Shown: positions 8,935 to 53,827 of the stretch, piece by piece | How positions within the stretch are numbered: position 1 is the first letter of the stretch | How the letters are laid out: the number at the start of each line of letters is the position of its first letter | Source of the DNA: a virus | Direction: 5' to 3' (one strand) | DNA: 64,000 nucleotides | Virus record (IMG/VR): IMGVR_UViG_3300042090_000199 | Coordinates: 1-64,000 of that record | The notes under the pieces: generated by a model | The model's database searches: none | The model's input: only the letters and a program-made list of their open reading frames with translations | What the model was told of the DNA's origin: nothing | Position numbers and translations under genes: made by a program

Positions 8935-9316
8935 GGTTATCATCCTGTCGTTCCGAGACAACGATGTTGCGGAGCACTTCGCACGTCAAGTTCTCGAAGG
9001 ACAAGAGAACGCCATGTGCTCGGTCTTGCCTGCGACAGGTGTCAAGATCGAGGCACTGATCGCACGTCCTACACAGAAGTGCAAAGGACCTCATCGCGTC
9101 CCTGGTAAGCTCAGGTCGCAGATGGGCTGGAGCCGTACGAGGCGTTACGGCTGGTGGGTCTGTAGCGTCTGCAACAAGTGCGCGCCGAAGGTCGTTCGTG
9201 ACTTCATCACGAACATGATCGGTGGGTACAACAATCTCCTGACGGAGCTGACAGGCGAAAACCCAGAAGAACCAGCTCCTTGGTACCGATACAGAAGGCC
9301 ATACGGGACATTATGA
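8927..9316 (+). CDS. Hypothetical protein; last sense codon is TTA
   Basis: 8-nt overlap upstream; ends ACA TTA TGA. Confidence 0.8.
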   Translation: MSRVIILSFRDNDVAEHFARQVLEGQENAMCSVLPATGVKIEALIARPTQKCKGPHRVPGKLRSQMGWSRTRRYGWWVCSVCNKCAPKVVRDFITNMIGGYNNLLTELTGENPEEPAPWYRYRRPYGTL

Positions 9317-9651
9317 GCAAGCTCGGGACGATCTATCTTCTCCACTGGGATGGTCGTCTCGGCTCTGGTGCTCCGCGTAATCAAGCCTGGCATTACACAG
9401 GCTGGTACAGGTCTGAGAGTCGTATCGACCATCACAGAAACGGTACATCAGACGTTGCAATCGTGAACGCCTTCCTAAGAGCTGGATTCGGATTCGTTAT
9501 TGCACGGACACGAGAAGGTACTAAGGAAGACGAACGTCGAATCAAGAATGCAGGTGGGGCTCGACGATACTGCCCTATCTGTACAGAACACCCAAGGGAA
9601 GGTGTATGGGGTGTATTACACGGAAGTGTTCCTAAGAGGCATAGGCAATAG
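9313..9651 (+). CDS. GIY-YIG-like endonuclease (would end at 9618 if TTA terminates)
   Basis: TIYLL...HYTG...RIDHHRNG...ERRIK. Confidence 0.7.
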   Translation: MSKLGTIYLLHWDGRLGSGAPRNQAWHYTGWYRSESRIDHHRNGTSDVAIVNAFLRAGFGFVIARTREGTKEDERRIKNAGGARRYCPICTEHPREGVWGVLHGSVPKRHRQ

Positions 9652-9901
9652 CCTCTACTGGATGGGAATAACTGATCCTAGCCTAGCAGGCTACAACGAC
9701 GAAGACCCTGACGACCATTTCGTCTGGGTCTCCGCAGGTACCGGAGAGATCCACCTGAGCAACGAAGGTTGCTGGTGGCTCCACTGGGATCAAACGCACG
9801 GCGTCGATGACGAAAAGGAACTTACAGTGCCTGTCACAGAAGATCCTGCAGTCATAGCTCGGTGGCTTCTTGATCAGATCCCTCAGTTCGAGAAGCAGTA
9901 G
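9611..9901 (+). CDS. Hypothetical protein
   Basis: GTG start 8 nt after AGGGAAGG. Confidence 0.7.
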   Translation: MYYTEVFLRGIGNSLYWMGITDPSLAGYNDEDPDDHFVWVSAGTGEIHLSNEGCWWLHWDQTHGVDDEKELTVPVTEDPAVIARWLLDQIPQFEKQ

Positions 9902-9904
9902 ATC

Positions 9905-10168
9905 ATGGCACTCGAAGTCGTCGAAGTAGACGGCGAACACGTTACGTACTCGATTACAGAGGCTACCGACAAGTTCTCGATCGGTTATCTCGACCTCGTA
10001 TTCGAGATATGCACAGACGGAGACATGACCATTTACAACCCCCTGTCCAAGAAGCGCCTCTGGGTAGCTTCTGGTCTGGCACAAGACACGAACATCTACG
10101 ACGCTATGACACGCGTAATAAGAGTAGCCAAGGAACTGAAGTTCCTCGGCGACCCCGACGAAGACTAG
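9905..10168 (+). CDS. Hypothetical protein
   Basis: ORF track. Confidence 0.75.
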   Translation: MALEVVEVDGEHVTYSITEATDKFSIGYLDLVFEICTDGDMTIYNPLSKKRLWVASGLAQDTNIYDAMTRVIRVAKELKFLGDPDED

Positions 10169-10187
10169 CGTTGACGAAGACTAGCGT

Positions 10188-10224
10188 TAGAGACGCCGTC
10201 TGTCTCGGCAGACGGCATCTCTTT
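10188..10224 (+). terminator. Intrinsic terminator-like hairpin
   Basis: AGAGACGCCGTCTG/CAGACGGCATCTCT followed by T residues, just before the next promoter. Confidence 0.65.
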
Positions 10225-10248
10225 GCTAAAACTTTGCGATTTTTTCCC

Positions 10249-10278
10249 TTGCGTTTGCTTATCGTCATCATTTATAAT
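10249..10278 (+). promoter_or_regulatory. Phage promoter TTGCGT-N18-TATAAT
   Basis: Recurring promoter geometry. Confidence 0.8.
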
Positions 10279-10315
10279 TAAGAAAGAAAAAAGAATGAAA
10301 GGAGGTACTGGTCTC

Positions 10316-10636
10316 TTGAGGCTGTCGATGCAGGACATTTATGAAGCTGTCAATGATCCACTATGGCAGCATTTCAGGAAGTCCCTAAAAGGTGTCTCCA
10401 CGGAAGCCAAGATAGGCAAGCTCAAGGAATACCTGAAAGACGTTGGACCGTTTGATAGCAGAGACTTTGACTCGACCAAGCCTTACATTCGAGTCCAGAA
10501 CTACATTAACGCACTTTCCAGAGGCGGGCAGATAGAGCCTACAGATCGGTCGCTATCTGTCCGGAGGCAACTAGAAGAGGTAGTAATCAAAAGGTTACAG
10601 TCTCTTCCCAACGAAAATGGAAGGAGGTACCAGTGA
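10316..10636 (+). CDS. Hypothetical protein (would end at 10597 if TTA terminates)
   Basis: RBS AAGGAGG, TTG start (alternatives 10295/10328); in-frame TTA at 10595. Confidence 0.75.
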   Translation: MRLSMQDIYEAVNDPLWQHFRKSLKGVSTEAKIGKLKEYLKDVGPFDSRDFDSTKPYIRVQNYINALSRGGQIEPTDRSLSVRRQLEEVVIKRLQSLPNENGRRYQ

Positions 10637-11877
10637 CTAACACAAAGGAAATCGAAGGTCTAACCAACAACCTAGCTGCTGCATTCACTCCCAGAGAAGG
10701 TAGCAACCAAGTTCCGGCTAGGCTTCACGAAGCTGCGGTAGAGCTCGACAAGATGATGACGTCTAAAGAGCCCTGTCCGCTAGATGTCGTACGTGAATTC
10801 GTAGGACGTTTCGTCTACGCAAGCGACGCCGAGCTAGACATTCTTACTGTCTGGATCGCGCACACTTACGTGTTCCAAGCGTACTACGCGACTCCTCGTC
10901 TGGCAGTCATGGCGCCTATGAAAGAGGCAGGCAAGACAACTGTCCTCAACATGATCGCAGCCCTCGGCAAGAATGCGATCGTAACTATGAACGCGTCAGC
11001 GGCAGCGCTGTACGCGATCATCGATCAGGAGCACCCCACGATCGCTTTCGACGAGACGGACAACATGTGGGGCCCAACTGGGCAAGGTAGCAGATACCGT
11101 GAGCAACTGTCGATCCTCAACAACGGGTACACGCAGGACGGCTTCGTCCTGAGGAGTCGGAGCGGCAGCGCGTATAAGTACCCTGTCTTCGTGTGTGCTG
11201 CGTTCGCAGGTATCGGCAAGCTGCCAGACACGCTCGCGAGTCGGAGCATTCCGATCAACATGAGGCCGGTGCCAGACACTGTCGACCTGCAGGAGTACGA
11301 GCCAGATCTGTTCCGAGGCGAGGCAGCGAGGGTCGCGGAGATCCTTCAGTCCTGGCTGGCAGAACGGGGACCAGAGCTCGACCTCCAACCAGATATGCCC
11401 GAAGGTCTTAGGTCACGCAGACGTCAGATCATGAAGGTCATGATCGGAATAGGCGACCTAGCAGGACCAGACTGGAGTGCTCGAATCCGTCAGGCTTGCA
11501 GAGAGGTAGTCCTCGGCATTTCACGGACTGCCAAGGTCAGCCCTGCGGAAGAGCTCATCAGGATCGTCACGTCTGTCACAGGACAAGGGATCTTCCTACC
11601 GACAGGCGACTTGATCGCCCTACTCAAGATCCAGCGAGACCACGACAACAAGATCTCGTGGGCGACTTGGCTGGACAACCCGATTATCGCGGCGCGTCAG
11701 ATCGCCAACATTCTCAAGCCGTACGGAATCGAGACTCAGCAGAAGTGGCTCGACGGTGAAAACCGTAGAGGCTACAACACCAGTGACTTCCATATGTGGG
11801 CGCAAGCTCGCGCGGCCAAGGAAGAACCGCAGGTCGTCGTAGACGAAGATCCTGACGAGGAGGACGAAGCCGAATGA
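10633..11877 (+). CDS. DUF3631-like P-loop protein (primase-associated helicase-like)
   Basis: WIAHTY..TPRL, Walker A-like APMKEAGKTT, Walker B IAFDETD, TLASRSI, C-terminal RRGY. Confidence 0.75.
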   Translation: MTNTKEIEGLTNNLAAAFTPREGSNQVPARLHEAAVELDKMMTSKEPCPLDVVREFVGRFVYASDAELDILTVWIAHTYVFQAYYATPRLAVMAPMKEAGKTTVLNMIAALGKNAIVTMNASAAALYAIIDQEHPTIAFDETDNMWGPTGQGSRYREQLSILNNGYTQDGFVLRSRSGSAYKYPVFVCAAFAGIGKLPDTLASRSIPINMRPVPDTVDLQEYEPDLFRGEAARVAEILQSWLAERGPELDLQPDMPEGLRSRRRQIMKVMIGIGDLAGPDWSARIRQACREVVLGISRTAKVSPAEELIRIVTSVTGQGIFLPTGDLIALLKIQRDHDNKISWATWLDNPIIAARQIANILKPYGIETQQKWLDGENRRGYNTSDFHMWAQARAAKEEPQVVVDEDPDEEDEAE

Positions 11878-12032
11878 TCCAGATTCGAGTGTTCTACTCG
11901 GACAACTTCATCCACGCCTCGAATTCCTACGTAGCACCAAGGAAGGTCACTGTGGTCGACCTTGAGCGTTACTTCAAGCAGTTTAACAAATACGGCTGGT
12001 CAGCTTGGGCTGAGATCGAAGTCGTATCATGA
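11874..12032 (+). CDS. Small hypothetical protein (MIQIRVFY...)
   Basis: ATGA overlaps at both ends. Confidence 0.7.
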   Translation: MIQIRVFYSDNFIHASNSYVAPRKVTVVDLERYFKQFNKYGWSAWAEIEVVS

Positions 12033-12229
12033 GTTACGAAGCAGTAAGCAGTCCGAACGCTCCGAGACCGGACGACCCTCTGGTCATTAGCATATCGGAA
12101 GGTCTGGCTGCGATAGCACGTAACTACGTGCGAGAAGGTTCCGGCCCGGGGTCTCGCTTCGAAGGGCGCCTACTTGAGGACGTCCAGGCAGAGTGGGTCG
12201 TGAGGGGGTTCAGAAGCAATGGGGCATGA
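12029..12229 (+). CDS. Hypothetical protein
   Basis: ATGA overlap. Confidence 0.7.
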   Translation: MSYEAVSSPNAPRPDDPLVISISEGLAAIARNYVREGSGPGSRFEGRLLEDVQAEWVVRGFRSNGA

Positions 12230-12554
12230 CTATCACCAAGGGCAGCCGAACTACAACCGGAAGCAGCTGTTTCATGATGGCTGTACCGAGTGTAAGCTAC
12301 GTGCAGAGAACCCCTCGTTCCTGTTCGACCATGTCGACATGCGAGAAGCATGGGCTCGAGCCATCAAGCTAGGCAAAGGCGAACTAGAAGACCATGATCT
12401 TCCGATCAGTGACATCGAGCAGCCAGTCCTGCGGATGCTGTGGTCCATGATCATAGGTCTCGAACGCCACGGACTCCCTATCGGGTCTTATCCACCAGAT
12501 GTAGCGGTAGTTCTAGGTCGTGCACGTCAGATCCTAGAGGACATTAAGAACTAG
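12219..12554 (+). CDS. Hypothetical protein
   Basis: ORF track; HDGCTEC motif. Confidence 0.75.
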   Translation: MGHDYHQGQPNYNRKQLFHDGCTECKLRAENPSFLFDHVDMREAWARAIKLGKGELEDHDLPISDIEQPVLRMLWSMIIGLERHGLPIGSYPPDVAVVLGRARQILEDIKN

Positions 12555-12580
12555 TACGAACACACAGAAAGAACCCGGCT

Positions 12581-13048
12581 ATGGCATCAAAAGTTATCAG
12601 GATCGAATTCCGAGGAGCGCACAAGTGCTTTAACCAGCTGCGCTCGAACAACAACCGAGGCCTCATAGCGGCCTACAGGTTCGGCGAGATCATGATGGTT
12701 CTGAACAGGCAGGGCTTTACGCTCGACGAGCTCGGCGCAGAATTCGACCGCAAGGCCAGAACGATCTCCATGTACATCAAGCTGTTCAAGATGTACGAGG
12801 ACGAGCAGGCACTGCTCTCAACGGCAGACAAGATGAAGACCTGGAGCGTCTCGCGTCTCACCGGCAACACCGCGGTCGAGCTCATGGTCTTCCTCTACCA
12901 CTGCAGCAACTGCGGTGCCAAGGGCGACGACATCGTCAAGACCAAGAGGCGGAAGGACGAAGTCGAAGCCGAGAAGGAACTAGCCGACGCAGCTACCGGC
13001 GCTACTACGGTCGAGTTCAAGGCGCCCGAATACAAGCAGGCGAACTAG
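12581..13048 (+). CDS. HTH plus Zn-ribbon protein, putative regulator
   Basis: GFTLDELGAEFDRKARTISMYIK helix-turn-helix pattern; CSNC. Confidence 0.6.
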   Translation: MASKVIRIEFRGAHKCFNQLRSNNNRGLIAAYRFGEIMMVLNRQGFTLDELGAEFDRKARTISMYIKLFKMYEDEQALLSTADKMKTWSVSRLTGNTAVELMVFLYHCSNCGAKGDDIVKTKRRKDEVEAEKELADAATGATTVEFKAPEYKQAN

Positions 13049-13281
13049 TGGACTCGATTAAGGCAGCTTTCGCAGCCGACATTCAGGAGCTCGTCAAGAA
13101 GGCTGTCGAAGACAAAGATACGGCCGTTCCTGACGGGTTTCCTAGGCTCAGCGATCAGTTCACAGATGTCGTCGCAATAGAGTATCAGCGCATCTCCGAT
13201 CTTGTAGGAGTAGTGCGAATCAACGGTGTATCAGGTAGAGGGCCTCGCTACTTCGAAGTCATCGTGAAGGAACGTTACTAG
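13048..13281 (+). CDS. Hypothetical protein
   Basis: TAGTG coupling. Confidence 0.7.
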   Translation: MDSIKAAFAADIQELVKKAVEDKDTAVPDGFPRLSDQFTDVVAIEYQRISDLVGVVRINGVSGRGPRYFEVIVKERY

Positions 13282-13322
13282 AGCCGTCGAGGCAGAGGCG
13301 AAACTCGCTCGATGCCTATAAT

Positions 13323-13580
13323 TAAAGATATCCAACCACAGAACGGAAGGAGGTGAGGCTCCTAGATATCCTAATAGTCAAAGGCTAGTAGTCTCAGAAA
13401 TCCAACTAGTAACCGGAGCAACAAATCATCCCACCGCTGGAAGTATACGCGGGGATGCAGCTAGGCTCACAGGCACCGTGGCCTGTGAGGGTGCCACACG
13501 AACAAGGGTTCGCGGACACCCAAACCATGCCAGCGCTACCCGACTGGCCACGCAGCATCAACAGGAACAGGGAAGGTACA
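13323..13580 (+). ncRNA. Candidate structured RNA or long leader
   Basis: TATAAT at 13317-13322 followed by a run of hairpins and no good ORF. Confidence 0.4.
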
Positions 13581-13791: not shown

Positions 13792-14829
13792 ATGATTGGG
13801 AAGAAGAGGAAGCTGGTAGTAGGTGCGATCATCGCGGTCGTCATCGCTATCGTCGCTGCCGTCATCGGTTCCAACCGAGCAACTGCAGCGCCTATCTACG
13901 GCGATACGTCGGCCACGGTGAGTCCTTTCACCTTGACCGATCACGGACCTCACGTGAGTACGCCGACGCCTCTGACGACGCCAGTGACCGTCCTGCCTGC
14001 GAGCATCCAGTTTCAGGCGATCGGGACGCCGCCCTTCCTCGGGGCGGATACCTGGCAGGTCAGTCCGGCGACGCTGGATGGCTACGCACTCCAGATCAAC
14101 AGCGCAGGTCTCCTGACCCTGACGCCGATCAGTGGAGCGACGCAGACCATCGGGGCTGGTGCTATCGCGGTTTCGGCGACTGACGTCCTCGGCGCGACGG
14201 GGCTGGATACCGTCACTATCGGGTTCGTCGACGCCACACACTCCAGCCTGACACAGGTGTCACACAACCTGCTGAACAACATCTTCGGCCTGAACAACAA
14301 CGCCAACGGCCAGGTCGACTTCTCACTGGTACCGACGCCCGCTCCGGCCGTAACCTGGTCGGCAGGGAACCTGCCCAACGGCACGGCGATGGCATCGAAC
14401 GGTATCCTGACGGCGACGAGCTCGATCCCCGGCGCCTACAATGAGGTGCCTGTGAGGGCTACAGACAGTGGCGGGGCAACAGCCGTCGCGGTCGTGGACC
14501 TGACTATCAAGGGTGCGATCGTCGGTAACGATACGCCGAGGCTGTCGCATGGGTATGCGGTTGCGGGAATCAACAGTTCCCGTGAGAACGTGTTCTACGA
14601 GCAGGACGGGTCGCCGTCCTGGGACCACTTCACCATCGTGGGCCCCGGCGCGATCAACGGTCACCAGGGTTGGGTTCACGGCCAGCTCGGACTGAACGAA
14701 GCGGTCTACGGAGGCCTGCTGGCGGGTCACGGTTACACCGTGTTCTACCAGCCGGTGACCGGACCAGGCTCGACCACGCCGTGGCCGGGTGCACACTGGG
14801 GCTACGTCTACTTCATTAGCGGACGATAG
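13792..14829 (+). CDS. Secreted protein with putative Ig-like (He_PIG-type) domains
   Basis: Signal peptide KKRK + hydrophobic + ATA|A; WSAGNLPNG...GILTAT...GAY...VRATDSGG. Confidence 0.75.
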   Translation: MIGKKRKLVVGAIIAVVIAIVAAVIGSNRATAAPIYGDTSATVSPFTLTDHGPHVSTPTPLTTPVTVLPASIQFQAIGTPPFLGADTWQVSPATLDGYALQINSAGLLTLTPISGATQTIGAGAIAVSATDVLGATGLDTVTIGFVDATHSSLTQVSHNLLNNIFGLNNNANGQVDFSLVPTPAPAVTWSAGNLPNGTAMASNGILTATSSIPGAYNEVPVRATDSGGATAVAVVDLTIKGAIVGNDTPRLSHGYAVAGINSSRENVFYEQDGSPSWDHFTIVGPGAINGHQGWVHGQLGLNEAVYGGLLAGHGYTVFYQPVTGPGSTTPWPGAHWGYVYFISGR

Positions 14830-14839
14830 TTACCTGAAC

Positions 14840-14955
14840 GTCCTGTCCGAGCCGTACGGCGCGGGAACGCCTTACGAGGCGGCTCGGGCAGGGCCTTGAG
14901 GTAACTATGGCAGTTGCCTTGAATGTCCTGTTCAGTTCTGGGTGCTGAACAGGGC
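14840..14955 (+). repeat. Two GTCCTG...CAGGGC hairpin units (14840-14894, 14925-14955)
   Basis: Same termini and upstream AAC/AAT as the 16.5 kb array. Confidence 0.8.
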
Positions 14956-16473: not shown

Positions 16474-16478
16474 CAAAC

Positions 16479-16748
16479 GTCCTGTCTGAGTGTTCCTAGG
16501 AATGGCGAGGCTCCGCTCAGACAGGATCCAAACGTCCTGTTCGGACCTGGGGTTTACAGCGGGCACCGAACAGGACCCAGACACCCTGATCTAGAGTCCC
16601 TAATAGGGTTCGTCCCAGTGGTAGGTATCTAGGTCAGGGCCCGAACGTCCTGCTCGGGAAGTGGCAACGATCCGTCTAGGAGCTCCTAGGCGACGACCAC
16701 ACGCCCGAGCAGGACTCAAACGTCCAGCTAGGCGCGTCTAGGACACCA
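16479..16748 (+). ncRNA. Tandem array of five hairpin units with fixed 6-nt linkers (candidate small-RNA array)
   Basis: Stems start at 16479, 16534, 16583, 16647, 16722; linkers CCAAAC, CCAGAC, CCGAAC, TCAAAC; compensatory stem changes. Confidence 0.75.
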
Positions 16749-17480
16749 AGGTTTCGATAGCTCGACCATGGTGTGGAAAGAAGCGGAAGCAGGACGAAAA
16801 GGCGAAGGGGACAACGCAGGTGAAGCGCAGACCAGCAGGCGCACCAGTCACACGTCCTGCCGAGTTGAACCACACCTCTGGTGTCCCCTTCGTCGCGTCG
16901 GGACGACACATGTGGGTGTCAGCACCGAGTACGCGCTCGGAACGTGTTGCACTGGTTCGAATCCAGGTCCCGGCTCGAGGCTCCGTCGTTCTCCCGTTCG
17001 ACGGAGCCTGCCTAGGTCGACCATCCGCAAAGGGAGTACACACACGAGGATGCTTCGGTCAGACTCCACCTAGGCATTACGCCGGCCCGGCGGCGTGCGT
17101 CTTGCTTCACCCTCCAGTGGCAGACGCGAAGGGTTCACCCCACTCACCGGGACCCACAATCGTAGCTGGCAGGAACACTCAACCTCGAGGACTCTTGAGT
17201 AAGGTCCGAAGCCGAGAGCACGTTTGCCTTATTGGCCCGTGCGCTAATATCGAGCCAGCCACTCAATCACCGGGCTGTCAGATGCGTAGTCTGAACAGCT
17301 GGCGGCCCGGCCATAACCCTGGGAGCACCTCCTATGGGCGGTCGATCGCGACAAGGCAAGCCGGGCCTGCTCTGCTGATCCTGCCCATGCGTGGCGGTGC
17401 AGCGGGAGGTGCTCCCAGGCCGACTGAAGGCTGCTGGATGTGTAGGCTTAATCTACAGCATAGAGTACCTGACCAGTGTG
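16749..17480 (+). ncRNA. Candidate large structured ncRNA containing a tRNA-like domain (16897-16975)
   Basis: Many 7-15 bp helices, a possible pseudoknot, TTCGAAT T-loop; no convincing ORF. Confidence 0.6.
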
Positions 17481-17499
17481 ACGTAAGAGAGGAGCGGTA

Positions 17500-20062: not shown

Positions 20063-20482
20063 ATGGAAGACCTACAGGACCGTATCTACACCGTCGTCGA
20101 GGAAGCCCTTCCTCTGAGTAGTACAGGTCTCAATGTCCTGGGGTTCGACGTAGTCTTCGGCAACTGGGACGTCAACGGGAATCCTACTGCAGCCTACGCC
20201 ATAATCATCGTCGCTAGGCCTACGCTACCTGGAGGCGCGGCGCTCCTGGATAACAGTCCTGCAGACGTACACGTTCAGATCATCGGTCAGGTGACTCTTG
20301 AAGGACCTGCAGGAGACTTCTATCCCTCCGACAAGACTATTCGGGCACACGTCAAGACAGCCTGCGACGCGATGCGTCTGAAGGCGACGCAGAAGCAGGC
20401 ACCTTCTAACGGTGGTGCAGTACCACCTAACCCGTTCACGGAGGCTCTCAAGCGTCATCAACAGCAGCGTGAGCAAGGATAG
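20063..20482 (+). CDS. Hypothetical protein
   Basis: ORF track (alternative start 20051). Confidence 0.75.
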   Translation: MEDLQDRIYTVVEEALPLSSTGLNVLGFDVVFGNWDVNGNPTAAYAIIIVARPTLPGGAALLDNSPADVHVQIIGQVTLEGPAGDFYPSDKTIRAHVKTACDAMRLKATQKQAPSNGGAVPPNPFTEALKRHQQQREQG

Positions 20483-20516
20483 TAACGATACCTCAAAAAG
20501 ATCTTGCTGGAGCCTC

Positions 20517-20546
20517 TAGCATTTCTGTTAGGTCTCGTGATATAAT
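20517..20546 (+). promoter_or_regulatory. Phage promoter TAGCAT-N18-TATAAT
   Basis: Recurring geometry; upstream AAAAAGATCTTGC shared with the 4432 promoter. Confidence 0.8.
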
Positions 20547-20582
20547 TAAGTAAGGAAAGAATAGTGGTGTTCGGGAGCGGCT

Positions 20583-20780
20583 GTGAGTCGTAAGTATAAC
20601 TGTAAACATCCGAACCGTGGCATTTCGAAGTACATCGATCGTCTTAGACGTAGAGGCCTTAGTAAGGCGCCCAGGATGGAACCTCTAGCAGACCTGAAGA
20701 AGCGTCAGAAGATCGAACCTATTCCCGAGTCTGAGATAGTCCGAGCAGGCTGGGGTCTCGGAGGCGAAGATGTCGGCTGA
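20583..20780 (+). CDS. Small basic protein
   Basis: RBS GGGAG. Confidence 0.65.
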   Translation: MSRKYNCKHPNRGISKYIDRLRRRGLSKAPRMEPLADLKKRQKIEPIPESEIVRAGWGLGGEDVG

Positions 20781-21066
20781 AGAAGACTTTCAGGCGTTCT
20801 GGGAAAAGAAGACAGGAACCTCCAATAGACATCCTAGAGAAGTCCTCATACGAGGTTACCAGTTTTACGATCTTCTTCTAGAGGCCTTCACAGCAGGGCG
20901 TGAAAGTGTCGAACCGGTTATCAATCCTGAATGGTGCAAGGAGATAGTTACCTTGCACAGGTCCAACTCGAACTTCTGGACCATACCAGAACTAGCCAAG
21001 CTATTCCAACTTCCAGAAGACCAAGTCAGGGAGATCCTGAATGCCAAGCAAGACGCTACTGGTTAA
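20770..21066 (+). CDS. Protein with C-terminal HTH
   Basis: WTIPELAKLFQLPEDQVREIL. Confidence 0.65.
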   Translation: MSAEEDFQAFWEKKTGTSNRHPREVLIRGYQFYDLLLEAFTAGRESVEPVINPEWCKEIVTLHRSNSNFWTIPELAKLFQLPEDQVREILNAKQDATG

Positions 21067-21829
21067 CGAAATCTTCGGTCCAACGATACAGGGTGAAGGT
21101 CCTGCAATGGGCCGACGCTGTGCTTTCGTTCGGCTAGCAATCTGCCCGTTGCGCTGCAAGTGGTGCGACACTCCTTACACGTGGGCCTTCTCGAACCCTA
21201 TTGCCGCGCACCATCAGAGTCACAAGGTGTACGACTATACCGAGGAAGTTCGCGAGATGACCGTAGGCGACGTTGTCAGCCAGGCTATCTTCTGTGCATC
21301 AGGTGCTAACCTCGTAGTCCTATCAGGTGGTGAACCGCTAGCTCAGGTCCCTGTCCCGCTACAGGATCCTGGAATCAAGCTGGAAGAGTCTTACGGCGAC
21401 CCTGTAGGGCTCCTGGTAAATACGCTGCTAGAGGCAGGTATCGAGACGCATATCGAGACTGCAGGCGTTCGTAGACCTAGCCCGTTCTTGCACGAAGCTG
21501 TAGGTGGATATGTCGTTTCGCCTAAGCTGGTCACTAGTGGTAACAGTCTCAAGGTAAGACGAGACCTAGACGTCCTGAGGTTCTTCGCGGACACGAATAA
21601 GGCGTTCTTCAAGTTCGTGATTACGGAACCGAACGACTTCTCCGAGATCAGCCAGATAGCAGCCCTATGTAGTATCCCGCCGTGGCGCATATGGGTAATG
21701 CCGGAAGGCACGACGCCCAAAGCTATCCAGGAAAAGATGACGTTCGTAGCAGACCGTGGAATTCGAGCAGGCTACAACGTCTCGTCACGTCTACACATCC
21801 TGGCTTGGGGCGACCAGAGAGCACACTGA
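21041..21829 (+). CDS. queE: 7-carboxy-7-deazaguanine synthase (radical SAM)
   Basis: EIFGPTIQGEG, CPLRCKWCDT, SGGEP, VSPKL, RLHIL. Confidence 0.95.
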   Translation: MPSKTLLVNEIFGPTIQGEGPAMGRRCAFVRLAICPLRCKWCDTPYTWAFSNPIAAHHQSHKVYDYTEEVREMTVGDVVSQAIFCASGANLVVLSGGEPLAQVPVPLQDPGIKLEESYGDPVGLLVNTLLEAGIETHIETAGVRRPSPFLHEAVGGYVVSPKLVTSGNSLKVRRDLDVLRFFADTNKAFFKFVITEPNDFSEISQIAALCSIPPWRIWVMPEGTTPKAIQEKMTFVADRGIRAGYNVSSRLHILAWGDQRAH

Positions 21830-24653: not shown

Positions 24654-24899
24654 ATGGCTGTTCATCATAACAGGCTAGTTCCGTCTTCTCCAGAGCCTCC
24701 AGCTCCGATCCGAGGTGGCACGTTCTTCTACTGCCCTTGGGGTGAGAGGAGAAAAAGCGACTGGGGCTCAATTTCGTTTCTAGCCTGCGGCATCGTCCAC
24801 GCTGGATGGGCAACCGGCACGAGATTCCGAACATGCAAGGCTTACCGGCAGCACTGGCGAAGGTATCACTCGGAGGTGCAGCATGACGATGTCCGTTAA
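24654..24899 (+). CDS. Hypothetical protein
   Basis: Fills the gap. Confidence 0.6.
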   Translation: MAVHHNRLVPSSPEPPAPIRGGTFFYCPWGERRKSDWGSISFLACGIVHAGWATGTRFRTCKAYRQHWRRYHSEVQHDDVR

Positions 24900-25113
24900 G
24901 ACAATGGAGTTCGACACAATCATCGTCATCTACGACTACACGAGCCAGACCTTGACTATCAAGTCAAAGTCTGCTCCAGAGACTAAACCAGCTACTAGGC
25001 ACAATCTTCAACCCGAAGGCGAGATCAAGCTGCCTAGCTTCAGTATTCAGGAGCTGCGAGAAGGTCTCGAAGGCATCGGTCAGCAAGTCCCATCAGGTCG
25101 ACGTTTATCTTAA
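24883..25113 (+). CDS. Hypothetical protein (ends CGT TTA TCT TAA)
   Basis: RBS GGAGGTG. Confidence 0.75.
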   Translation: MTMSVKTMEFDTIIVIYDYTSQTLTIKSKSAPETKPATRHNLQPEGEIKLPSFSIQELREGLEGIGQQVPSGRRLS

Positions 25114-25713: not shown

Positions 25714-26421
25714 ATGGGCGGTATAGCAATCGTGTCCGGCGGGCTTGACAGCACCACGATGCTGTACGATCTTGTGAATAGCGGAACAGACGTAGACGTA
25801 GTGTCCTTCAACTACGGGCAGCGTCACATCAGGGAACTGATTCAGGCAAGAGCTATCACTTCAGCTCTTCGTCTCCATCACCTGATCATAGACATTCCGT
25901 CCTATGGACGCTCGATCGTGTCCAGCGCGAGCTCTCTGGTAGACCCTAACGCTGAGGTCCCGGAAGGCAGCTACGACGCCGAAAGCATGAAAGCGACTGT
26001 TGTCCCGAACCGTAATATGGTCATGATAGCTATGGCGTCGGGAGTAGCAATCTCTACCAAGGCCCAGTTTGTCGCTACGGCAGTCCATGCAGGTGACCAC
26101 GCGATCTACCCCGACTGTAGGCCTGAGTTTATCAGGAGCCTAGAGACGGCTATCAAGATCGGTAACGAAGGGTTCATTGACCCTGGGTTCGAAATCAGGA
26201 CCCCTTACATCTACAGGACTAAGGCCGATATCGCCAGGCGAGCAGGCGAACTTCGTGTTCCTGTCGATCTCACGTGGTCGTGCTATAAGGGCGGAACTTC
26301 CCACTGCGGACGATGCGGGACCTGCGTAGAACGTCTCGAAGCCTTTCACGAGGCAGACGTGTTCGACCCTACGGTGTACATGGACACCGAATTCTGGAAG
26401 ACAGCGGTCGCGGCTAAGTAA
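25714..26421 (+). CDS. queC: 7-cyano-7-deazaguanine synthase
   Basis: SGGLDS, YGQRH, VPNRN, YPDCRPEF, TWSCY..CGRCGTCVER. Confidence 0.96.
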   Translation: MGGIAIVSGGLDSTTMLYDLVNSGTDVDVVSFNYGQRHIRELIQARAITSALRLHHLIIDIPSYGRSIVSSASSLVDPNAEVPEGSYDAESMKATVVPNRNMVMIAMASGVAISTKAQFVATAVHAGDHAIYPDCRPEFIRSLETAIKIGNEGFIDPGFEIRTPYIYRTKADIARRAGELRVPVDLTWSCYKGGTSHCGRCGTCVERLEAFHEADVFDPTVYMDTEFWKTAVAAK

Positions 26422-29912: not shown

Positions 29913-30419
29913 ATGTGGCGCATCAGTAAGACATTTCAGTTCTCAGCAGCGCACTATCTCAATGATCTTGCAGAAGGCCACCCTTGTGGACGCTTGCATG
30001 GGCACAATTACGAGGTCGAACTGTATCTAGAAAGTCCTGCGCTCGACGATGTAGGCTTCGTACGTGACTACGGAGAGCTAGGACGCTTCAAGACCTGGCT
30101 GGACAACACGTTCGACCACAGGCAGATCAACGACACGATCGAACAGCCTACAGCCGAGAACATGGCGAAGATGTTCTACGAGCGAGCAGTAGTCTTGTAC
30201 CCCGAAGTCGTAGCTGTACGTGTCAGCGAGACACCGAAGACAACCGCCTGGTATTCGCCGCACTCACTACCGCCGCTAGACACCGTGCTCGATGTCATAG
30301 AGTCACTCGCAGGAGAGCCGGTTTCTAGTCCAGATCGTCAGCGCCTCATAGACGCACTAACTCAGCTTCTTCCGTTCCGGTCTATATTCGGCGTGGGAGA
30401 GCCTGGTGGAGGGAAGTAA
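29913..30419 (+). CDS. queD: 6-carboxy-5,6,7,8-tetrahydropterin synthase with C-terminal extension
   Basis: FSAAH, CGRLHGHNY, FDHR, PTAENMA, VSET. Confidence 0.93.
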   Translation: MWRISKTFQFSAAHYLNDLAEGHPCGRLHGHNYEVELYLESPALDDVGFVRDYGELGRFKTWLDNTFDHRQINDTIEQPTAENMAKMFYERAVVLYPEVVAVRVSETPKTTAWYSPHSLPPLDTVLDVIESLAGEPVSSPDRQRLIDALTQLLPFRSIFGVGEPGGGK

Positions 30420-31033
30420 TGCCTTTCGAACCTGATGGCTTGATATACAGAGATTCCGTAACAGGTCAAGAAGTTCTAGACGTTCAAACAGCTAGACCTG
30501 AGACCCTGATGAGAATCCTTCTAGAAAAGGTTCTACCAGACTTCGACTGGGACGGCGACGACGTCAGGGATACTCCGAAGCGCTTCGTCAAGATGCTACG
30601 CGAGCTAACAGATGCTAGCGAGCATTGGCAATTTACAACCTTCAAGACAGACGCTCACGAACTAGTGGTTGTCAAGAACATTCGGTTCGTAAGTCTATGC
30701 TCACACCATCTAGCGCCTTTCACAGGTATCTGCCATGTAGGCTACGTACCTGATGGACTCATTGCAGGTCTATCCAAGATAGCGCGTCAGGTTCAGACAG
30801 CAGCTAAGACTCCCGCAGTCCAGGAAGAACTAACTACAGACCTGGCAGATACGTTCAATGATATCCTGAATCCACAAGGTATCATTGTCGTCATGAAGGC
30901 GTTCCACAGCTGCATGTCGCTGCGAGGCGCACTAGCACACGAGACCGAAACGGTCACCAGCGCTGTCAGAGGCGTCTTCGTCGATAACAAGCGCCACGTC
31001 AAAGAGGAATTCTTCAAGCTGTTGGGGCTGTAA
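30419..31033 (+). CDS. folE: GTP cyclohydrolase I
   Basis: DTPKR, SLCSHHLAPF, GLSKIAR, VQEELT, HSCMSLRG. Confidence 0.95.
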   Translation: MPFEPDGLIYRDSVTGQEVLDVQTARPETLMRILLEKVLPDFDWDGDDVRDTPKRFVKMLRELTDASEHWQFTTFKTDAHELVVVKNIRFVSLCSHHLAPFTGICHVGYVPDGLIAGLSKIARQVQTAAKTPAVQEELTTDLADTFNDILNPQGIIVVMKAFHSCMSLRGALAHETETVTSAVRGVFVDNKRHVKEEFFKLLGL

Positions 31034-31869
31034 TGATTCCGATAGAAGTAGCAATTATCCCTCCAGGCGCTCTCGCACAGCGGTACTGCGAAAACCGTCG
31101 TATACAGATGGCTCTGGCAGGCGAACTCATTCATCCTAACGGAGGAGAACCTCCGAACGGTCACTATCTCGACTTCTACAACCAGGCATGGAAGAGTCAC
31201 CATGTCGAGTGGCTACTAGACAACGGCGCCTGGGAAGGTCAACGTCTGAACAACAACGACCTTCTGCGAGTCGCTGCACGCTACGGTGCAACAGAGCTAG
31301 TAGCACCTGACGTCCTAGGTGATCCTTCCGCGACGCTAGCACTCACTCAAGAGTTCCTGGGACTTCTACGAGACTCGCCGAAGCTGCCTTTCGGACAGGT
31401 CCCACGCATTGCAGTCGTAGCTCACGGGCAGAGTCTTAACGAGTCTCTGGCGTTCGTATCCGAACTGAACCACTGCGACACGAGTCATCATGTCAAGACG
31501 ATCTCTATCAGCCGAACTACCTGCTACAGGTCAGGCAACCCTACAGCTAGGTTTGAACTGGCTCTAGAAATCAAGAAGCGCTACGGTATTCGTTACGATA
31601 TTCACCTGCTAGGCTTTAGTGACCAATGGCCAACAGAGCTTCAGCACTGCGCCTCGGTATCTGGTCTAGTTCGGAGCATGGATACTATTGCGCCCTTCTC
31701 GTATGCACACAGAGGAGTAAGCATAGAAGAAGTCGGCAGAGTAGAAGTACCGCGGCCTGATAACTACTTCGAACTCACTTATGCAGACTTCGATCACGAC
31801 CTACTGCTGCACAACATCAACGTCCTCGACCAGTGGGGTCGTACTCCGATTCAGAGGTGGAAATCATGA
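31033..31869 (+). CDS. dpdA: TGT-fold DNA 7-deazaguanine transglycosylase (DpdA-like)
   Basis: LLDNGA, PDVLGD, IHLLG, RSMD motifs; coupled to queD-folE. Confidence 0.65.
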   Translation: MIPIEVAIIPPGALAQRYCENRRIQMALAGELIHPNGGEPPNGHYLDFYNQAWKSHHVEWLLDNGAWEGQRLNNNDLLRVAARYGATELVAPDVLGDPSATLALTQEFLGLLRDSPKLPFGQVPRIAVVAHGQSLNESLAFVSELNHCDTSHHVKTISISRTTCYRSGNPTARFELALEIKKRYGIRYDIHLLGFSDQWPTELQHCASVSGLVRSMDTIAPFSYAHRGVSIEEVGRVEVPRPDNYFELTYADFDHDLLLHNINVLDQWGRTPIQRWKS

Positions 31870-49656: not shown

Positions 49657-49669
49657 AGCAGTTCCTTCC

Positions 49670-50302
49670 TTATGCCGTCTGGTCGTAGATCACGAACGGT
49701 GAGATCGCAGCGCTCACGTAGAACGCTGTGAACGTGCACGCCCACACCGATTGAGTTGCCAGGTCGTACTTCGCCGTCGCCTTGACGTCGTTGAGGACCT
49801 TGCGTACGATGAAGCGCCGCCGCGCAACCGCACCGCTACCCAGGTTCGGTGCCCAGCCATCGATGAGCAACGCGCTATACGTTGGCTGGGTGATCGTCGG
49901 CGTGTTTGTCCCAGGAGCAGCAACCGCACCTCCTGGGTCGAGAGTGTTGATACCAGAGCCGACGGTTAGAATCGGCGACTGGTTCATTGCTTCCTGCAGG
50001 TTGGCCAGCGTCGCCTCGAGTAGCGACACCGTCACCGTGATTGCTCGTCCCGTGAGTCGAGCGCCGATCGGGTCGACAGACTGGTCTGCCTTGATCTGGC
50101 CGTACGTGTACGCCGCCTCCCACTGGACGCCGCCCATCGTGCCGCCGAAGTCGGTGTACCCTGCACCGCCAGCCGAGACCGGGTCTGTCTTGATCGACGT
50201 GTTAGTCACCGGAGGCTCAGTTACCGCCCCGAAGGTGCCCCAGTAGATCGTCGCAGGTCCCTGAACGACGTTACCAGGAGTGACGCCTACGTATCCTGTC
50301 AT
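49670..50302 (-). CDS. Major tail protein
   Basis: NVVQGPA, GGTMGGV, LLEATLANL; synteny; strong codon bias. Confidence 0.85.
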   Translation of the reverse strand: MTGYVGVTPGNVVQGPATIYWGTFGAVTEPPVTNTSIKTDPVSAGGAGYTDFGGTMGGVQWEAAYTYGQIKADQSVDPIGARLTGRAITVTVSLLEATLANLQEAMNQSPILTVGSGINTLDPGGAVAAPGTNTPTITQPTYSALLIDGWAPNLGSGAVARRRFIVRKVLNDVKATAKYDLATQSVWACTFTAFYVSAAISPFVIYDQTA

Positions 50303-50317
50303 GTTGTCTCACACCTC

Positions 50318-50701
50318 CTAGTAAACGCCGCCGGACTGGATAACAACGACACCCGACACGTTCGCCGGAGTACCGAAGTTGATCTGAACGGTGTTGGTAC
50401 CTGCGTTCGCGTCCACCGTATAGAATGGGCCGAGCAGGTACACGTGAGCTGGAGTCGCCTCCGTGAAGGCGATCGCAGGAATGCTCACACCCAGGATCTG
50501 AGCGCCTGGAGTGATAGTAGCTGCAGGGTCGCCTGTGACTGTCTTACAGAACACGAGCGTGAGCCCTGGAATGTTGGGAAACGTGATACCGGTGTTAGCA
50601 CCAAGTGTCGCGTATGTCATCGCGGTCGTGTCGAGCACGCCGTTTCCTACCAGCTGCTGGAACCCTGGCGAAACGCCGGGCCCGAGCGCGAGAACTGTCA
50701 T
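50318..50701 (-). CDS. Putative virion protein, paralogue of 62383..62775
   Basis: Shared motifs (see findings). Confidence 0.7.
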   Translation of the reverse strand: MTVLALGPGVSPGFQQLVGNGVLDTTAMTYATLGANTGITFPNIPGLTLVFCKTVTGDPAATITPGAQILGVSIPAIAFTEATPAHVYLLGPFYTVDANAGTNTVQINFGTPANVSGVVVIQSGGVY

Positions 50702-50949
50702 CCCCGCCTCCTACGGGTCGCTGCGGCCTTACGACCGACTGCTTTCGCCTTAGCCGTTCCGGCTCGACGATGTGACGCTCCACCAAAGTTCTTGGCGAAG
50801 TTTGCCTGACGGACTGTAGACGCGGGATACGTTCCCTTCTTAGCTGACAGAACCTTACGAGCGTAAGCCTGATTACTCATCCCAGCAGCCTTCGACTTCT
50901 TAGAGAAAGCTCCAGGATGCTTGATAGTGATCTTCATCTTCCCAGCCAC
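50698..50949 (-). CDS. Small very basic protein
   Basis: IKHPGAF...RQANFAKN; K/R-rich. Confidence 0.75.
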   Translation of the reverse strand: MAGKMKITIKHPGAFSKKSKAAGMSNQAYARKVLSAKKGTYPASTVRQANFAKNFGGASHRRAGTAKAKAVGRKAAATRRRRG

Positions 50950-50981
50950 GGTTCCTCCTCCCGAAACCAGTCCGCCATATC

Positions 50982-51479
50982 TTACTGAACCACAAGTCCT
51001 ACTTCACGCCAAGAAAACGCCATGTCCATCGAGTATGCTGCCCAGTTACGCGCGTCGCTATATATTCTCCTCGCTTCCGTATGAACCTCTGCATGTATAA
51101 CACATGCAGGCGCGTAAGCCTTTCCCCCGAAATCAATCGTCAGAGCACGTCCGAAGACACCTGGGAGCTTACTCATTGAAGCAAGCCAGATCTGCTGCAG
51201 CAGGTTGTTAGCTGCGTACCAAGGTGGCTTATTCGATCCAGGCTTAGTCGCGTAAGCCTTAACCTCAATTAGAGGCTGTGCAATCGGCATACCTACCATA
51301 GGAGTTCCTCCTACAGCGGTTACCGTAATAAAGTTAGAGATCCCGTCTAGGTTCAGAGGCCACTGCTGTTCAGCAGGAGGCTGAGTAGACACCATACCAG
51401 GATTGAAGACACCAAACTGACCCGGAATACTGCCGATCCAGGCCATAGCAACCAGTTCGCTATTGGGGTGAAGAGCCAT
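50982..51479 (-). CDS. Tail terminator-like protein
   Basis: Start MALHPNSELVA; synteny. Confidence 0.7.
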   Translation of the reverse strand: MALHPNSELVAMAWIGSIPGQFGVFNPGMVSTQPPAEQQWPLNLDGISNFITVTAVGGTPMVGMPIAQPLIEVKAYATKPGSNKPPWYAANNLLQQIWLASMSKLPGVFGRALTIDFGGKAYAPACVIHAEVHTEARRIYSDARNWAAYSMDMAFSWREVGLVVQ

Positions 51480-51913
51480 AAGCCACCCCTCTTTCTCCGC
51501 TGTTGCGAAGCACGGAGCTGGATCCACTGATCGAGAGTAGTCGGACGACCAAAGTGTTGAATACCAGGAGCTACCAACGGAGTAGTGCCCTCAGGGTCCT
51601 CTGGCGTCCTATACTTGTACAACGCAGGTCTCAAGAACGGCTCTTCAGGAACTATTTCAGGACCGACAGTATGAGTAAAGCGATGGAAGACACGGTGACC
51701 GAATTCTACATCCAACGTGTAAGCAGCCGTAGAGTAGATAATCAGTGTCAGGTTGTCTACGTAGTACTCAATTCCCGCTGCGAGTGCCCCCGTACGCTTA
51801 GGTGCATATCGTATCGCGTCTGCTGTGATCAAAGGCCCAAGAGTCACGTCGAGAAATTCTTCGACGTCAGCCTCTATATGCCCGATCGCATCGGGATCGA
51901 TATAAACACGCAC
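51353..51913 (-). CDS. HK97 gp10-like neck/tail-completion protein (would end at 51479 if TTA terminates)
   Basis: APKRTGAL, Y..DVEFG, PFLRPAL; 42-codon run-on into next gene starts at TTA. Confidence 0.75.
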   Translation of the reverse strand: MRVYIDPDAIGHIEADVEEFLDVTLGPLITADAIRYAPKRTGALAAGIEYYVDNLTLIIYSTAAYTLDVEFGHRVFHRFTHTVGPEIVPEEPFLRPALYKYRTPEDPEGTTPLVAPGIQHFGRPTTLDQWIQLRASQQRRKRGGLWLFTPIANWLLWPGSAVFRVSLVSSILVWCLLSLLLNSSGL

Positions 51914-51992
51914 TCGCCACGTCCCTCTACGTCAGTGGCACGACAAAGTTCCTAGGCGTCTACCGCCCTGCAGATTTCGTCGCTCTATTCTA

Positions 51993-52022
51993 ATAATAAC
52001 ACACAACACACTAGGAAAGCTA
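51993..52022 (-). promoter_or_regulatory. Phage promoter TAGCTT-N18-TATTAT for the tail genes
   Basis: Same geometry on the minus strand in an AT-rich gap. Confidence 0.65.
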
Positions 52023-52059
52023 GGGTAAGTCACTAAAATACTTAACGATACTAGTAAAA

Positions 52060-52392
52060 TTACAATTCCCTCCAGGTGTTCCCTTCATCGAGATAGCCAT
52101 GCCAGTAGAAAGGCGAACTACCGCAGCCTATTGATGCACGGATCTCAAGAGAGCCATCTATGCACTCACGAAACGTCCAAGGAGGTTCGTACACACCATG
52201 GAGCCCGCTATGCTCATCAGGACGATCGAACTTGTCGACACCCTTATGTGTTGGGAGCAGAAACCATACGACACGATCTTCATGGCCTCCACTTATGATC
52301 GGATGCGGGCCAGTATAGTCACCGGCCCGCTCCAGATCATCAAGCGTCGGGACTCTACGAGCTGGAGTCAGGTTCACGGATCCGGTATCCAT
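52060..52392 (-). CDS. Hypothetical protein, DUF6527-like
   Basis: WTF..GSLEIRASI..WHGYL..G.W. Confidence 0.55.
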   Translation of the reverse strand: MDTGSVNLTPARRVPTLDDLERAGDYTGPHPIISGGHEDRVVWFLLPTHKGVDKFDRPDEHSGLHGVYEPPWTFRECIDGSLEIRASIGCGSSPFYWHGYLDEGNTWREL

Positions 52393-52537
52393 CTCGCCTG
52401 AAACCAGGGTTCTTTGGATCAGGGCAGTGCCCATCCATATGGTGTAGAGTAGCTCCTTCCAGGCTTTCGTACCACGGAAGTATGAACCAGTCGAAGAACC
52501 AGTCGACTAGGAGAACGAACTTGCTCTTGTTATACAT
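52355..52537 (-). CDS. Small hypothetical protein
   Basis: Fills the gap. Confidence 0.55.
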   Translation of the reverse strand: MYNKSKFVLLVDWFFDWFILPWYESLEGATLHHMDGHCPDPKNPGFRRDGYRIREPDSSS

Positions 52538-52538
52538 G

Positions 52539-53387
52539 TCACACGATCATCTGCTTGTAGTCGACGTAGTTCCCGAGTAGGCCCAGAGTGGACGCATGAA
52601 TCAGATAATCGCCGTCTAGACCGAAGCTCGGGCTCCAGGAGTTCCGGACCTTGATGATCGTCTTCTGCAGGTCGATAGCACCGGTAGCCTTGGCCTGTGC
52701 CAGCTGGACGATACCTCGCTCGCAGGTTTCGTGACCGCCTGCCACACCTGACTCGATTGCCGCTTGAAGAGCGTCTACCGAACCGTCGCCATCGACGAAG
52801 CCATCTGAGTCGGGCTGCATCCAGGACTTGAACCATGGAGCGCCCTGAATGACCGTACCTGTCTGGAGAGCGAGCAGCGCTCCCTGAACATTGTGCGGAA
52901 CGTTGTAGTCCTTGACAAGCCCGCTAGCTACCGCGAACTCGCAGCAGTACGACCCTGTCGAACCGCAGTCTGCAGGAGGCCACTCCTGAGACTGGTCTTG
53001 AGTCTGATCGGTATCCAGGTGGTAGAACACGATAGCCCACTGCTCGTTAGCTGCGGGCGAGTTAGGCGACATACGCCAGATCTTGCCACCGAAACCGATC
53101 TCGAGCGACTCGAGATCCTTGCCTGCTGTAACCGACAGCTGAGCGATATGCGCCGTCGAAGCATTCGCAGTACAGGACCCAAGCGCGTCTACCGTAGGCG
53201 CTCCAGGAACCAAAGTCGACGTATCGATCGACTGTGCGAGTAGGTCCTCCTGGTCAAGAACCGGAATCGGGATATCCCAGTTGACTTCCTTGAGAGACTC
53301 CGTCGAGTGAAACAGAGCTCTCGGGAGCAGATGCTTCTCATCGATGCTGTACTGACCGAACTTGGTCCGTGTCGCGCCTGCGTACAT
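52539..53387 (-). CDS. Papain-like (C1) cysteine peptidase
   Basis: LDQ..GSCTANA, GGHE, VRNSWS..FG..G; start MYAGATR. Confidence 0.8.
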   Translation of the reverse strand: MYAGATRTKFGQYSIDEKHLLPRALFHSTESLKEVNWDIPIPVLDQEDLLAQSIDTSTLVPGAPTVDALGSCTANASTAHIAQLSVTAGKDLESLEIGFGGKIWRMSPNSPAANEQWAIVFYHLDTDQTQDQSQEWPPADCGSTGSYCCEFAVASGLVKDYNVPHNVQGALLALQTGTVIQGAPWFKSWMQPDSDGFVDGDGSVDALQAAIESGVAGGHETCERGIVQLAQAKATGAIDLQKTIIKVRNSWSPSFGLDGDYLIHASTLGLLGNYVDYKQMIV

Positions 53388-53827
53388 AAGGAGATCATGC
53401 CTTTCACGAATTCGTAAGCTGCCCAGTCTGACGCGCTGACGAGGTGAACTCCACCATGTCCGCGATGATGCCATACGCACAGCAACGTCAGGTTCTGGTC
53501 GGAATCGATCCATGCGCCGATTCCCTCTTGTGAAACACCTGGATAGAACTGTTCCAGGAGCTTGATATCGACGCCATTCTGGAGCGCGAACTCGATAACT
53601 GAGTGATGCGCTTCCAGAGGCTTCGTGAGATCGCACTCAGAGAAGTCAGGACGATACCTCTTAGCGAAGTCGCAGTCGTACGTACCTGCAGCTCTTCGTC
53701 GCCGCTTCCACTCCTCGAAATCGACGTGGTGAGGATCGTTTGCTCGAGGCTCGTGGGCTGGATAATGGACGGTGTAGTTATGGGCGACTGTCTGTACATG
53801 AGCAGGCACCTCCTGTGGAGTAGTCAC
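53189..53827 (-). CDS. HNH-like protein (would end at 53387 if TTA terminates)
   Basis: LEAHH..E, NLTLLCVWHHRG..GVH; 66-codon run-on into next gene starts at TTA. Confidence 0.7.
   Translation of the reverse strand: MTTPQEVPAHVQTVAHNYTVHYPAHEPRANDPHHVDFEEWKRRRRAAGTYDCDFAKRYRPDFSECDLTKPLEAHHSVIEFALQNGVDIKLLEQFYPGVSQEGIGAWIDSDQNLTLLCVWHHRGHGGVHLVSASDWAAYEFVKGMISLCTQARHGPSSVSTASMRSICSRELCFTRRSLSRKSTGISRFRFLTRRTYSHSRSIRRLWFLERLR

Follow-up and report, generated by a model that had tools for sequence, protein, structure and literature searches.

The DNA analyzed here is a window of 64,000 nucleotides (nt), the first 64 kilobases (kb) of IMG/VR record IMGVR_UViG_3300042090_000199 (G000), an uncultured wetland phage, and the question it raises is how the leucine codon TTA is read. 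A preliminary description of the window had noticed that its gene bodies lack in-frame TTA, with CTA, ATA, and TTG used freely, and had proposed sense-to-stop reassignment or conditional termination at UUA. We found that TTA is depleted in frame, restricted to gene ends, aligned exactly with the stop codons of related phages, and followed by unconstrained continuations. From these sequence comparisons, UUA is probably not read as leucine during infection by phages of this clade and would end translation as a weak fourth terminator. Most likely, up to six genes of the window, about 4% of genes, are closed by TTA.

In-frame TTA is nearly absent from gene bodies

G000 comprises 77,744 base pairs (bp) at 54.5% G+C, with an estimated completeness of 83%. 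We called genes with a codon model that scores TTA as neutral, so that the depletion is not circular. Among credible genes, in-frame TTA occurred in the window at exactly the six places listed in the preliminary description, given here together with the genes that follow at 53389 and 51481:

53387-53389, minus strand: TTA in a TTATG junction, ending a 146-codon HNH-like gene (53387-53827)
52539-53387, minus strand: peptidase-like gene of 282 amino acids (aa), PHROG 16701, whose ATG overlaps the TTA at 53387-53389
51479-51481, minus strand: TTA in a TTATG junction, ending a 144-codon Neck1/tail-completion gene (51479-51913)
50982-51479, minus strand: tail-terminator gene, a weak match to PHROG 123, whose ATG overlaps the TTA at 51479-51481
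10595-10597, plus strand: TTA at codon 90 of 102 in gene 10328-10636
9311-9313, plus strand: TTA as last codon (TTATGA) of gene 8927-9316, in an ATGA overlap with the next start
9616-9618, plus strand: TTA at codon 102 of 112 in gene 9313-9651
25105-25107, plus strand: TTA at codon 75 of 76 (TTA TCT TAA) in gene 24883-25113

In the high-confidence genes of G000, TTA occurs in frame three times in 19,746 codons, when 129 would be expected from position-specific base frequencies and 136 from the product TTG x CTA / CTG (Poisson P ~3e-51). Near-neighbor codons are common (CTA, a major leucine codon, 363 uses; TTG 174; ATA 168), and the next rarest sense codon, the strongly avoided AAA, has 71 uses (AAG has 677). 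The tape measure gene, in which more than 30 out-of-frame TTAs had been noticed before, contains 37 of them and none in frame, and the polymerase gene contains 19 and none. Since TTA is frequent out of frame and near-absent in frame, its avoidance is tied to the reading frame and does not act at the DNA level.

Relatives were fetched from IMG/VR with the 282-aa protein and the portal protein as queries. The closest, G001 (78,994 bp), has 85% nucleotide identity to G000; G005 and G415, of about 79 kb each, are more distant, and nine further fragments (G002-G004, G006-G009, L018, and L025) were obtained. Twelve records, namely G000, G001, G005, and these nine fragments, were pooled; their genes hold 30 TTAs among 112,307 called codons (CTA 2,028; TTG 1,103), and 1,600 and 634 TTAs in the two other frames. 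The further clade member G415 (79.6 kb) has one in-frame TTA where 106 are expected. As a control, the same pipeline was applied to the 47-kb phage G416 (54.9% G+C), which is unrelated apart from one small protein family in common with the clade, and returned 18 in-frame TTAs (29 expected) scattered along the genes. The Streptomyces phages KimJongPhill and Lizz (~64% G+C) are uninformative controls, with an expected TTA count of about 1-2 and an observed count of 1 and 0, and the absence of TTA from more distant metagenome relatives, mostly of 65-73% G+C, is equally uninformative. One such distant relative from the family of the 282-aa protein, L126 (Ga0070741_10002628, 65% G+C), carries five in-frame TTAs in about 5 kb in spite of its high G+C and has TTA inside genes, the opposite of the clade.

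The remaining TTAs are not spread evenly along genes. Fifteen of 16 unique sites fall in the last third of the open reading frame (ORF; p = 4e-7), and all but one of the credible TTAs in the 12 records lie near gene ends. Two TTA-bearing ORFs, 4348-4536 on the minus strand and 14789-14899 on the plus strand, were rejected as genes, being conserved stretches without three-base periodicity; the other TTA-bearing ORFs that were set aside are antisense shadows or 5' extensions upstream of the true start.

TTA exchanges with stop codons in related phages

If UUA ends translation, relatives may be expected to stop where these genes have TTA. The alignments bear this out at six sites at which TTA swaps with TAA, TAG, or TGA, three of them in the window (53389, 51481, and 10595) and three in relatives. 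At 53389, the standard code would carry the HNH-like gene on for 66 codons, to 53189. The aligned codon is TAA in G002 and L067, TAG in G003, and TTA in G001 and G006, with all relatives lying within the same ...KG[ML]I[SA]-xxx-TG junction; the continuation behind TTA is 3 codons in G001 and 19 in G006. The 282-aa protein that follows is 70-89% identical in relatives, and in its tree, TTA at this site appears in two separate subclades. At 51481, the neck gene, whose product matches PHROG 5 over residues 17-101, would continue for 42 codons to 51353 and so overlap the next gene by 127 nt. At this position, G007 and G003 carry TAA, and G004 and L068 carry TGA; G002 has TGA four codons later, and G001 has TTA followed by TAG after 9 codons. 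The tail-terminator protein encoded downstream is 68-92% identical in relatives.

For the gene at 10328-10636, the G415 homologue ends in ...AEIIR followed by TGA where the window has ...VVIKR followed by TTA, and the homologues in L153, L154, P0016, and P0017 end on the arginine aligned before the TTA at 10595. Taking this TTA as the stop leaves a 35-nt spacer that contains GGAAGGAGG, the ribosome-binding site of the gene starting at GTG-10633, a normal arrangement that the preliminary description had also pointed out.

The three exchanges found in relatives are of the same kind. One concerns a gene that ends in an ordinary stop in the window:

52060-52062, minus strand: TAA stop of gene 52060-52434; the aligned codon in G001 is TTA

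G001 reads ...GAA GTG TTA TTT TAT TAG at this place, and G002, G003, and L068 have TAG or TAA. Elsewhere, G002 has TTATGG where G005 has TAATGG and G003 has TAGTGG, and G006 and G008 have TTA where G000, G001, and G002 have TAG. Six sites, together with the occurrence of TTA in two subclades at one of them, imply at least six exchange events. Across 1,040 C-terminal alignments of orthologs, stops faced another stop in 981 cases and TTA in 11, and no other sense codon was seen there more than six times, so that TTA is the most frequent sense codon in this position. If TTA is included among the stops, the genes that end on it are 5 of 119 in G000, 6 of 114 in G001, 2 of 108 in G005, and 2 of 45 in G006.

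The other three sites of the window agree with termination at TTA without discriminating between readings. At 9311, G001 has TCA TGA, and ending one codon early would be harmless. The TTA at 9616 is kept in G001, and the tails of homologues after a conserved GVW vary in length and sequence. At 25105, the sequence is the same in G001, the only homologue found. The preliminary description had likened three TTATG sites to the stop-start junctions of the TGATG type at 1274, 5126, 13046, 21827, and 30417. Those five pentamers read as described, and the likeness holds for 51481 and 53389; the sequence at 9311 is TTATGA, an ordinary 4-nt ATGA overlap in which TTA is the last sense codon. Likewise, the proposed shortening of a 41-nt overlap to 8 nt at 9616 depends on a putative GTG start at 9611.

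Continuations behind TTA are unconstrained

Behind TTA, the frame stays open for 3, 3, 6, 8, 9, 15, 19, 42, and 66 codons at the sites compared, with a mean of 19; the chance continuation, calculated from the frequency of off-frame stops, is 21.5 codons. For the other sense codons found opposite stops, the distance to the next stop has a median of 1 codon and never exceeds 8 (Mann-Whitney p = 5e-6). All of the long continuations come from TTA, although it represents only about 8% of the one-step sense neighbors of the stops in use. The tails are not conserved either, measuring 42 codons in G000 and 9 in G001 at 51481, and 66 and 3 at 53389. Tails that are random in length and differ between relatives are not under selection. 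These tails and the alignment of TTA with stops speak for the earlier proposal of reassignment or conditional termination. The 127-nt and 199-nt overlaps that the standard code creates at the TTA sites, to which the preliminary description had drawn attention, are real outliers, the other same-strand overlaps in G000 being 1, 4, or 8 nt with a maximum of 29 nt. That the middle T is kept in both G000 and G001 was also considered as an argument and discarded, as this is not significant given a four-fold-site divergence of 28-41%.

A possible host basis for termination at UUA

We searched the phage genomes for components that could decode UUA or terminate at it. No genes for tRNA or transfer-messenger RNA (tmRNA) were found in 14 clade or related phage records, and no RF-1 (GGQ) release-factor domain was found in G000 or G001. 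Pfam searches with about 50 proteins returned families for replication, 7-deazaguanine synthesis, lysis, and structure only and no factor acting on UUA, and an Rfam search gave nothing above threshold. A tRNA-like element at 16897-16974, within the non-coding stretch 16474-17499, has an 8-bp acceptor stem and a perfect CTGG-TTCGAAT-CCAG T arm. It was rejected as a UUA decoder, its 6-nt "anticodon" loop having no UAA. The element matches tRNA-Sec weakly (17 bits) and is not called by ARAGORN. With neither a phage tRNA nor a release-factor domain found in G000 and G001, the effect is probably host-based.

The gene content is of an actinobacterial type. Among cultured phages, the portal protein matches actinophages only, the best matches being Streptomyces phages at 30-37% identity. 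Beyond the window, G000 encodes an Rpf-LysM transglycosylase and an NlpC/P60 peptidase, whose nearest clusters are actinobacterial. The closest cellular Rpf homologues are those of Streptosporangiaceae, Trebonia, and uncultured Actinomycetes metagenome-assembled genomes (MAGs) of 67-72% G+C, at about 40% identity; these matches do not assign a host. Run against 185,579 species genomes, a portal profile retrieved no relative. In 401 sampled genomes from the phylum of the Streptosporangiaceae MAG, it retrieved only remote prophage portals (best E = 5e-29), and in the five MAGs with the closest Rpf homologues, no portal relative. Compared with cultured phages, the endolysin matches through its peptidoglycan-binding domain only.

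The sequence comparisons show UUA behaving as a nonsense codon; how termination works is inferred. The causes offered in the preliminary description, namely a host that lacks or limits tRNA-Leu(UAA), destruction of this tRNA by the phage, and a release or rescue factor acting at UUA, are all candidates. Probably, a host belonging to the Actinomycetota would have no charged tRNA-Leu(UAA), or too little of it, during phage growth, as is the case with the bldA tRNA of actinomycetes (PMC10732093). At the empty A site, the peptide might be released by a host factor, either release factor 2 (RF2) reading the second codon base less strictly or a rescue factor of the ArfB type. RF2 is the first candidate because termination at UUA in organelles has been tied to substitutions in RF2 or RF1a (PMC12574857). 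Tagging by tmRNA is unlikely, as it would mark proteins required by the virion for destruction. Selection would then have purged TTA from every gene body and left it where ending is harmless or intended, that is, at stop-start junctions, within the last one or two codons, and in dispensable C-terminal tails.

Points against termination and alternative readings

Some observations weigh against UUA as a full terminator. TTA closes 3-5% of genes and TAA about 23%, and a fully equivalent stop should be commoner. Codon 117 of 282 in a tail-fiber-like gene of G001 (L010:365-1213; G001 20365-21213) is an in-frame TTA. This codon lies within the linker motif P-x-[AI]-QPG, at a variable position where homologues have V, A, or P, and the linker separates a conserved N-terminal domain from a swapped, receptor-type C-terminal domain that continues in frame. 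Several homologues are short proteins that end soon after the linker, and leaky stopping at the TTA could determine how much of a short and of a long form is made. In G415, the QueD gene has a TTA 24 codons before its end, aligned to CTA, CTC, or ATA in relatives; it lies beyond the catalytic domain, and the tail behind it is recognizably related to those of the relatives. Finally, at the protein level, P0015, which is 70% identical to the protein of 10328-10636, possesses the post-TTA tail. Together, these four points suggest a weak or leaky terminator or, alternatively, a codon without a reader whose consequences are tolerated near gene ends only. Whether UUA has already become a true fourth stop, read by a relaxed host RF2 or an unrecognized phage factor in an early sense-to-stop code change in which the codon is already fully purged and a few percent of genes end on it, is a stronger proposition that we entertain only tentatively.

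It seems unlikely that UUA is still leucine, decoded by a scarce and perhaps growth-phase-dependent tRNA of the bldA type, with the gene-end TTAs being tolerated stop-loss or CTA-to-TTA mutations or conditional stops that yield extended proteins whenever this tRNA is present. The actinobacterial gene content (Rpf-LysM, NlpC/P60, portal, and Rpf homologues) would suit such a tRNA, and the TTA in the G001 fiber and the leucine-aligned TTA in the G415 QueD gene fit occasional decoding. In Streptomyces, UUA is a rare bldA-dependent codon, and an upstream ORF of adpA terminates close to a UUA that lies 5-6 nt ahead of the main start (PMC10732093); in some Actinomycetota genera, UUA is reported to be weakly enriched at 3' ends (PMC13072593). 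Streptomyces UUA codons nevertheless cluster at 5' ends (PMC10732093, PMC13072593), whereas those of the clade lie at 3' ends. Slow decoding would, moreover, append 42 or 66 junk residues to the neck and HNH-like proteins and hold ribosomes on the next gene's start codon, which overlaps the TTA. The tails show no constraint, and no other sense codon gives a long continuation, even though the others represent about 92% of one-step stop-loss mutations. A scarce tRNA accounts for the purge of TTA and leaves its 3' location, the random tails, and the missing other sense codons unexplained.

We consider it very improbable that a hungry UUA provokes a frameshift or short bypass that fuses the upstream protein to the next gene product, as proposed for the phiHau3 terminase. 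At the three TTATG sites, the downstream gene does lie in the -1/+2 frame, and experiments in one Streptomyces phage support bypassing linked to UUA (PMC10732093). However, GGC-TTA-TGG and TCC-TTA-TGT contain no slippery heptamer, and their take-off and landing codons do not match; relatives have an ordinary stop in this position and so make two separate proteins; and TTA TTT TAT TAG in G001 has no downstream frame to enter. The frameshift alternative raised in the preliminary description is therefore not supported. No conserved gene split by UUA and a short frame-breaking insert was seen. A +1 slip at U-UAG or U-UAA, an idea put forward elsewhere (PMC10732093), fits the G006/G008 site only, since the TTATG sites would give UAU, and was rejected. 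Least probable of all is an artifact or a non-translational cause, such as assembly errors, gene-calling bias, or avoidance of the trinucleotide in DNA. The records are metagenome assemblies, and the gene calls were made in this analysis; on the other hand, the sites are common to independently assembled relatives, the gene caller is neutral toward TTA, TTA is common in the other two frames, and the control phage G416 is normal. Contigs of four further runs carry the same letters, those of X3, X4, and X6 matching at 53389 and those of X3, X4, and X5 at 51481. Three further DNA runs cover both TTATG sites without a differing letter, and the RNA run, which of the two covers only 53387-53389, shows no difference. 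The two junctions, being the same in contigs of other runs, are not assembly errors.

Relation to known codes

The published codes found in which UUA is a stop come from organelles. UUA is a stop in labyrinthulean (Thraustochytrium) mitochondria (NCBI table 23), UUA and UCA are stops in peDinoflagellate plastids, and UUA and UUG are stops in mitochondria of Marsupiomonadales and Pseudoscourfieldia (PMC12574857). These organelles have their own mutated release factor (changes at Ser204 of RF2 or in RF1a), and UUA ends up to half of their genes (PMC12574857). The clade resembles them in the codon concerned, in having no conserved internal UUA, in placing UUA only where homologues terminate, and in a genome without a cognate tRNA gene. 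It differs in being a group of phages without tRNA genes, in which no release factor was found, UUA closes 3-5% of genes, and two cases of read-through are possible.

Unassigned codons also serve as terminators in vertebrate mitochondria, where AGA and AGG end two genes with the help of a specialized release-factor paralogue. The likeness lies in a sense codon without a decoder that is used sparingly at a few gene ends; the codon and the system are different. Studies from the Osawa group reportedly identified unassigned codons in Micrococcus luteus and Mycoplasma capricolum, at which the peptide stayed on the ribosome in vitro. There, too, a codon has gone from genes without a tRNA to read it, and translation halts. 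In those bacteria, however, the loss came from extreme G+C or A+T pressure, and no replacement of stops was reported, whereas the phage described here has 54.5% G+C and uses CTA, ATA, and AGA freely. Some large phages read TAG or TGA as an amino acid by means of phage suppressor tRNAs. Their code is likewise non-standard, but the change in our clade would run in the opposite direction, from sense to stop, and no suppressor tRNA is present.

The bldA, adpA, and phiHau3 cases have in common with the clade an actinobacterial setting, the same rare codon, and a UUA that ends one ORF at the start of the next. Unlike in the clade, Streptomyces UUA is decodable and 5'-enriched, with no replacement of stops described, and the genes split by short inserts that characterize phiHau3 have no counterpart here. 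In the literature searched, we found no report of UUA as a stop in bacteria or phages; there, sense-to-stop changes are published for mitochondria and plastids only. The clade is a small actinophage-type group that shows the UUA-to-stop signature in a low-usage, possibly early or leaky form. If UUA ends translation there, sense-to-stop change would extend to phages, and the clade would present a plausible intermediate stage in which a codon is first unassigned and then becomes a terminator. Standard gene callers would produce wrongly extended proteins and spurious overlaps of 127-199 nt in these phages. The use of TTA would also be a read-out of the tRNA pool or termination machinery of the host during infection and provide a handle on translation conflicts between phage and host.

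Other features of the phage

G000 is organized like a siphovirus-type phage. Terminase, portal, capsid, neck, and tape-measure genes and a lysis block are on the minus strand, and replication and 7-deazaguanine genes are on the plus strand. Its stop codons are 41 TAG, 34 TGA, and 26 TAA, TAG being the commonest. DNA of G000 was found in several wetland metagenomes and in one metatranscriptome. In the latter (run X6), contigs extend over much of 50900-53900, the neck region, with 0 differences. The wetland may thus have contained active phage at sampling; these contigs could also stem from carried-over DNA.

The full preQ0/7-deazaguanine pathway is encoded by four genes:

21041-21829: QueE-like radical-SAM protein
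25714-26421: QueC (E = 2e-57)
29913-30419: QueD/PTPS
30419-31033: GTP cyclohydrolase I

In phages, the usual role of this pathway is DNA modification, and an unassigned 278-aa gene at 31033-31869, which adjoins the preQ0 genes, could encode the transglycosylase. At 6418-6720, a gene missed by the gene caller is supported by third-position substitutions relative to G001; its 100-aa product has many CxxC motifs and is a probable zinc ribbon. The intergenic stretch 4340-4564 is 94.7% identical to G001, compared with 85% genome-wide, and shows no coding periodicity. It contains a promoter-like TTGCAA...TATAAT pair and a GC-rich hairpin and is probably a conserved regulatory region.

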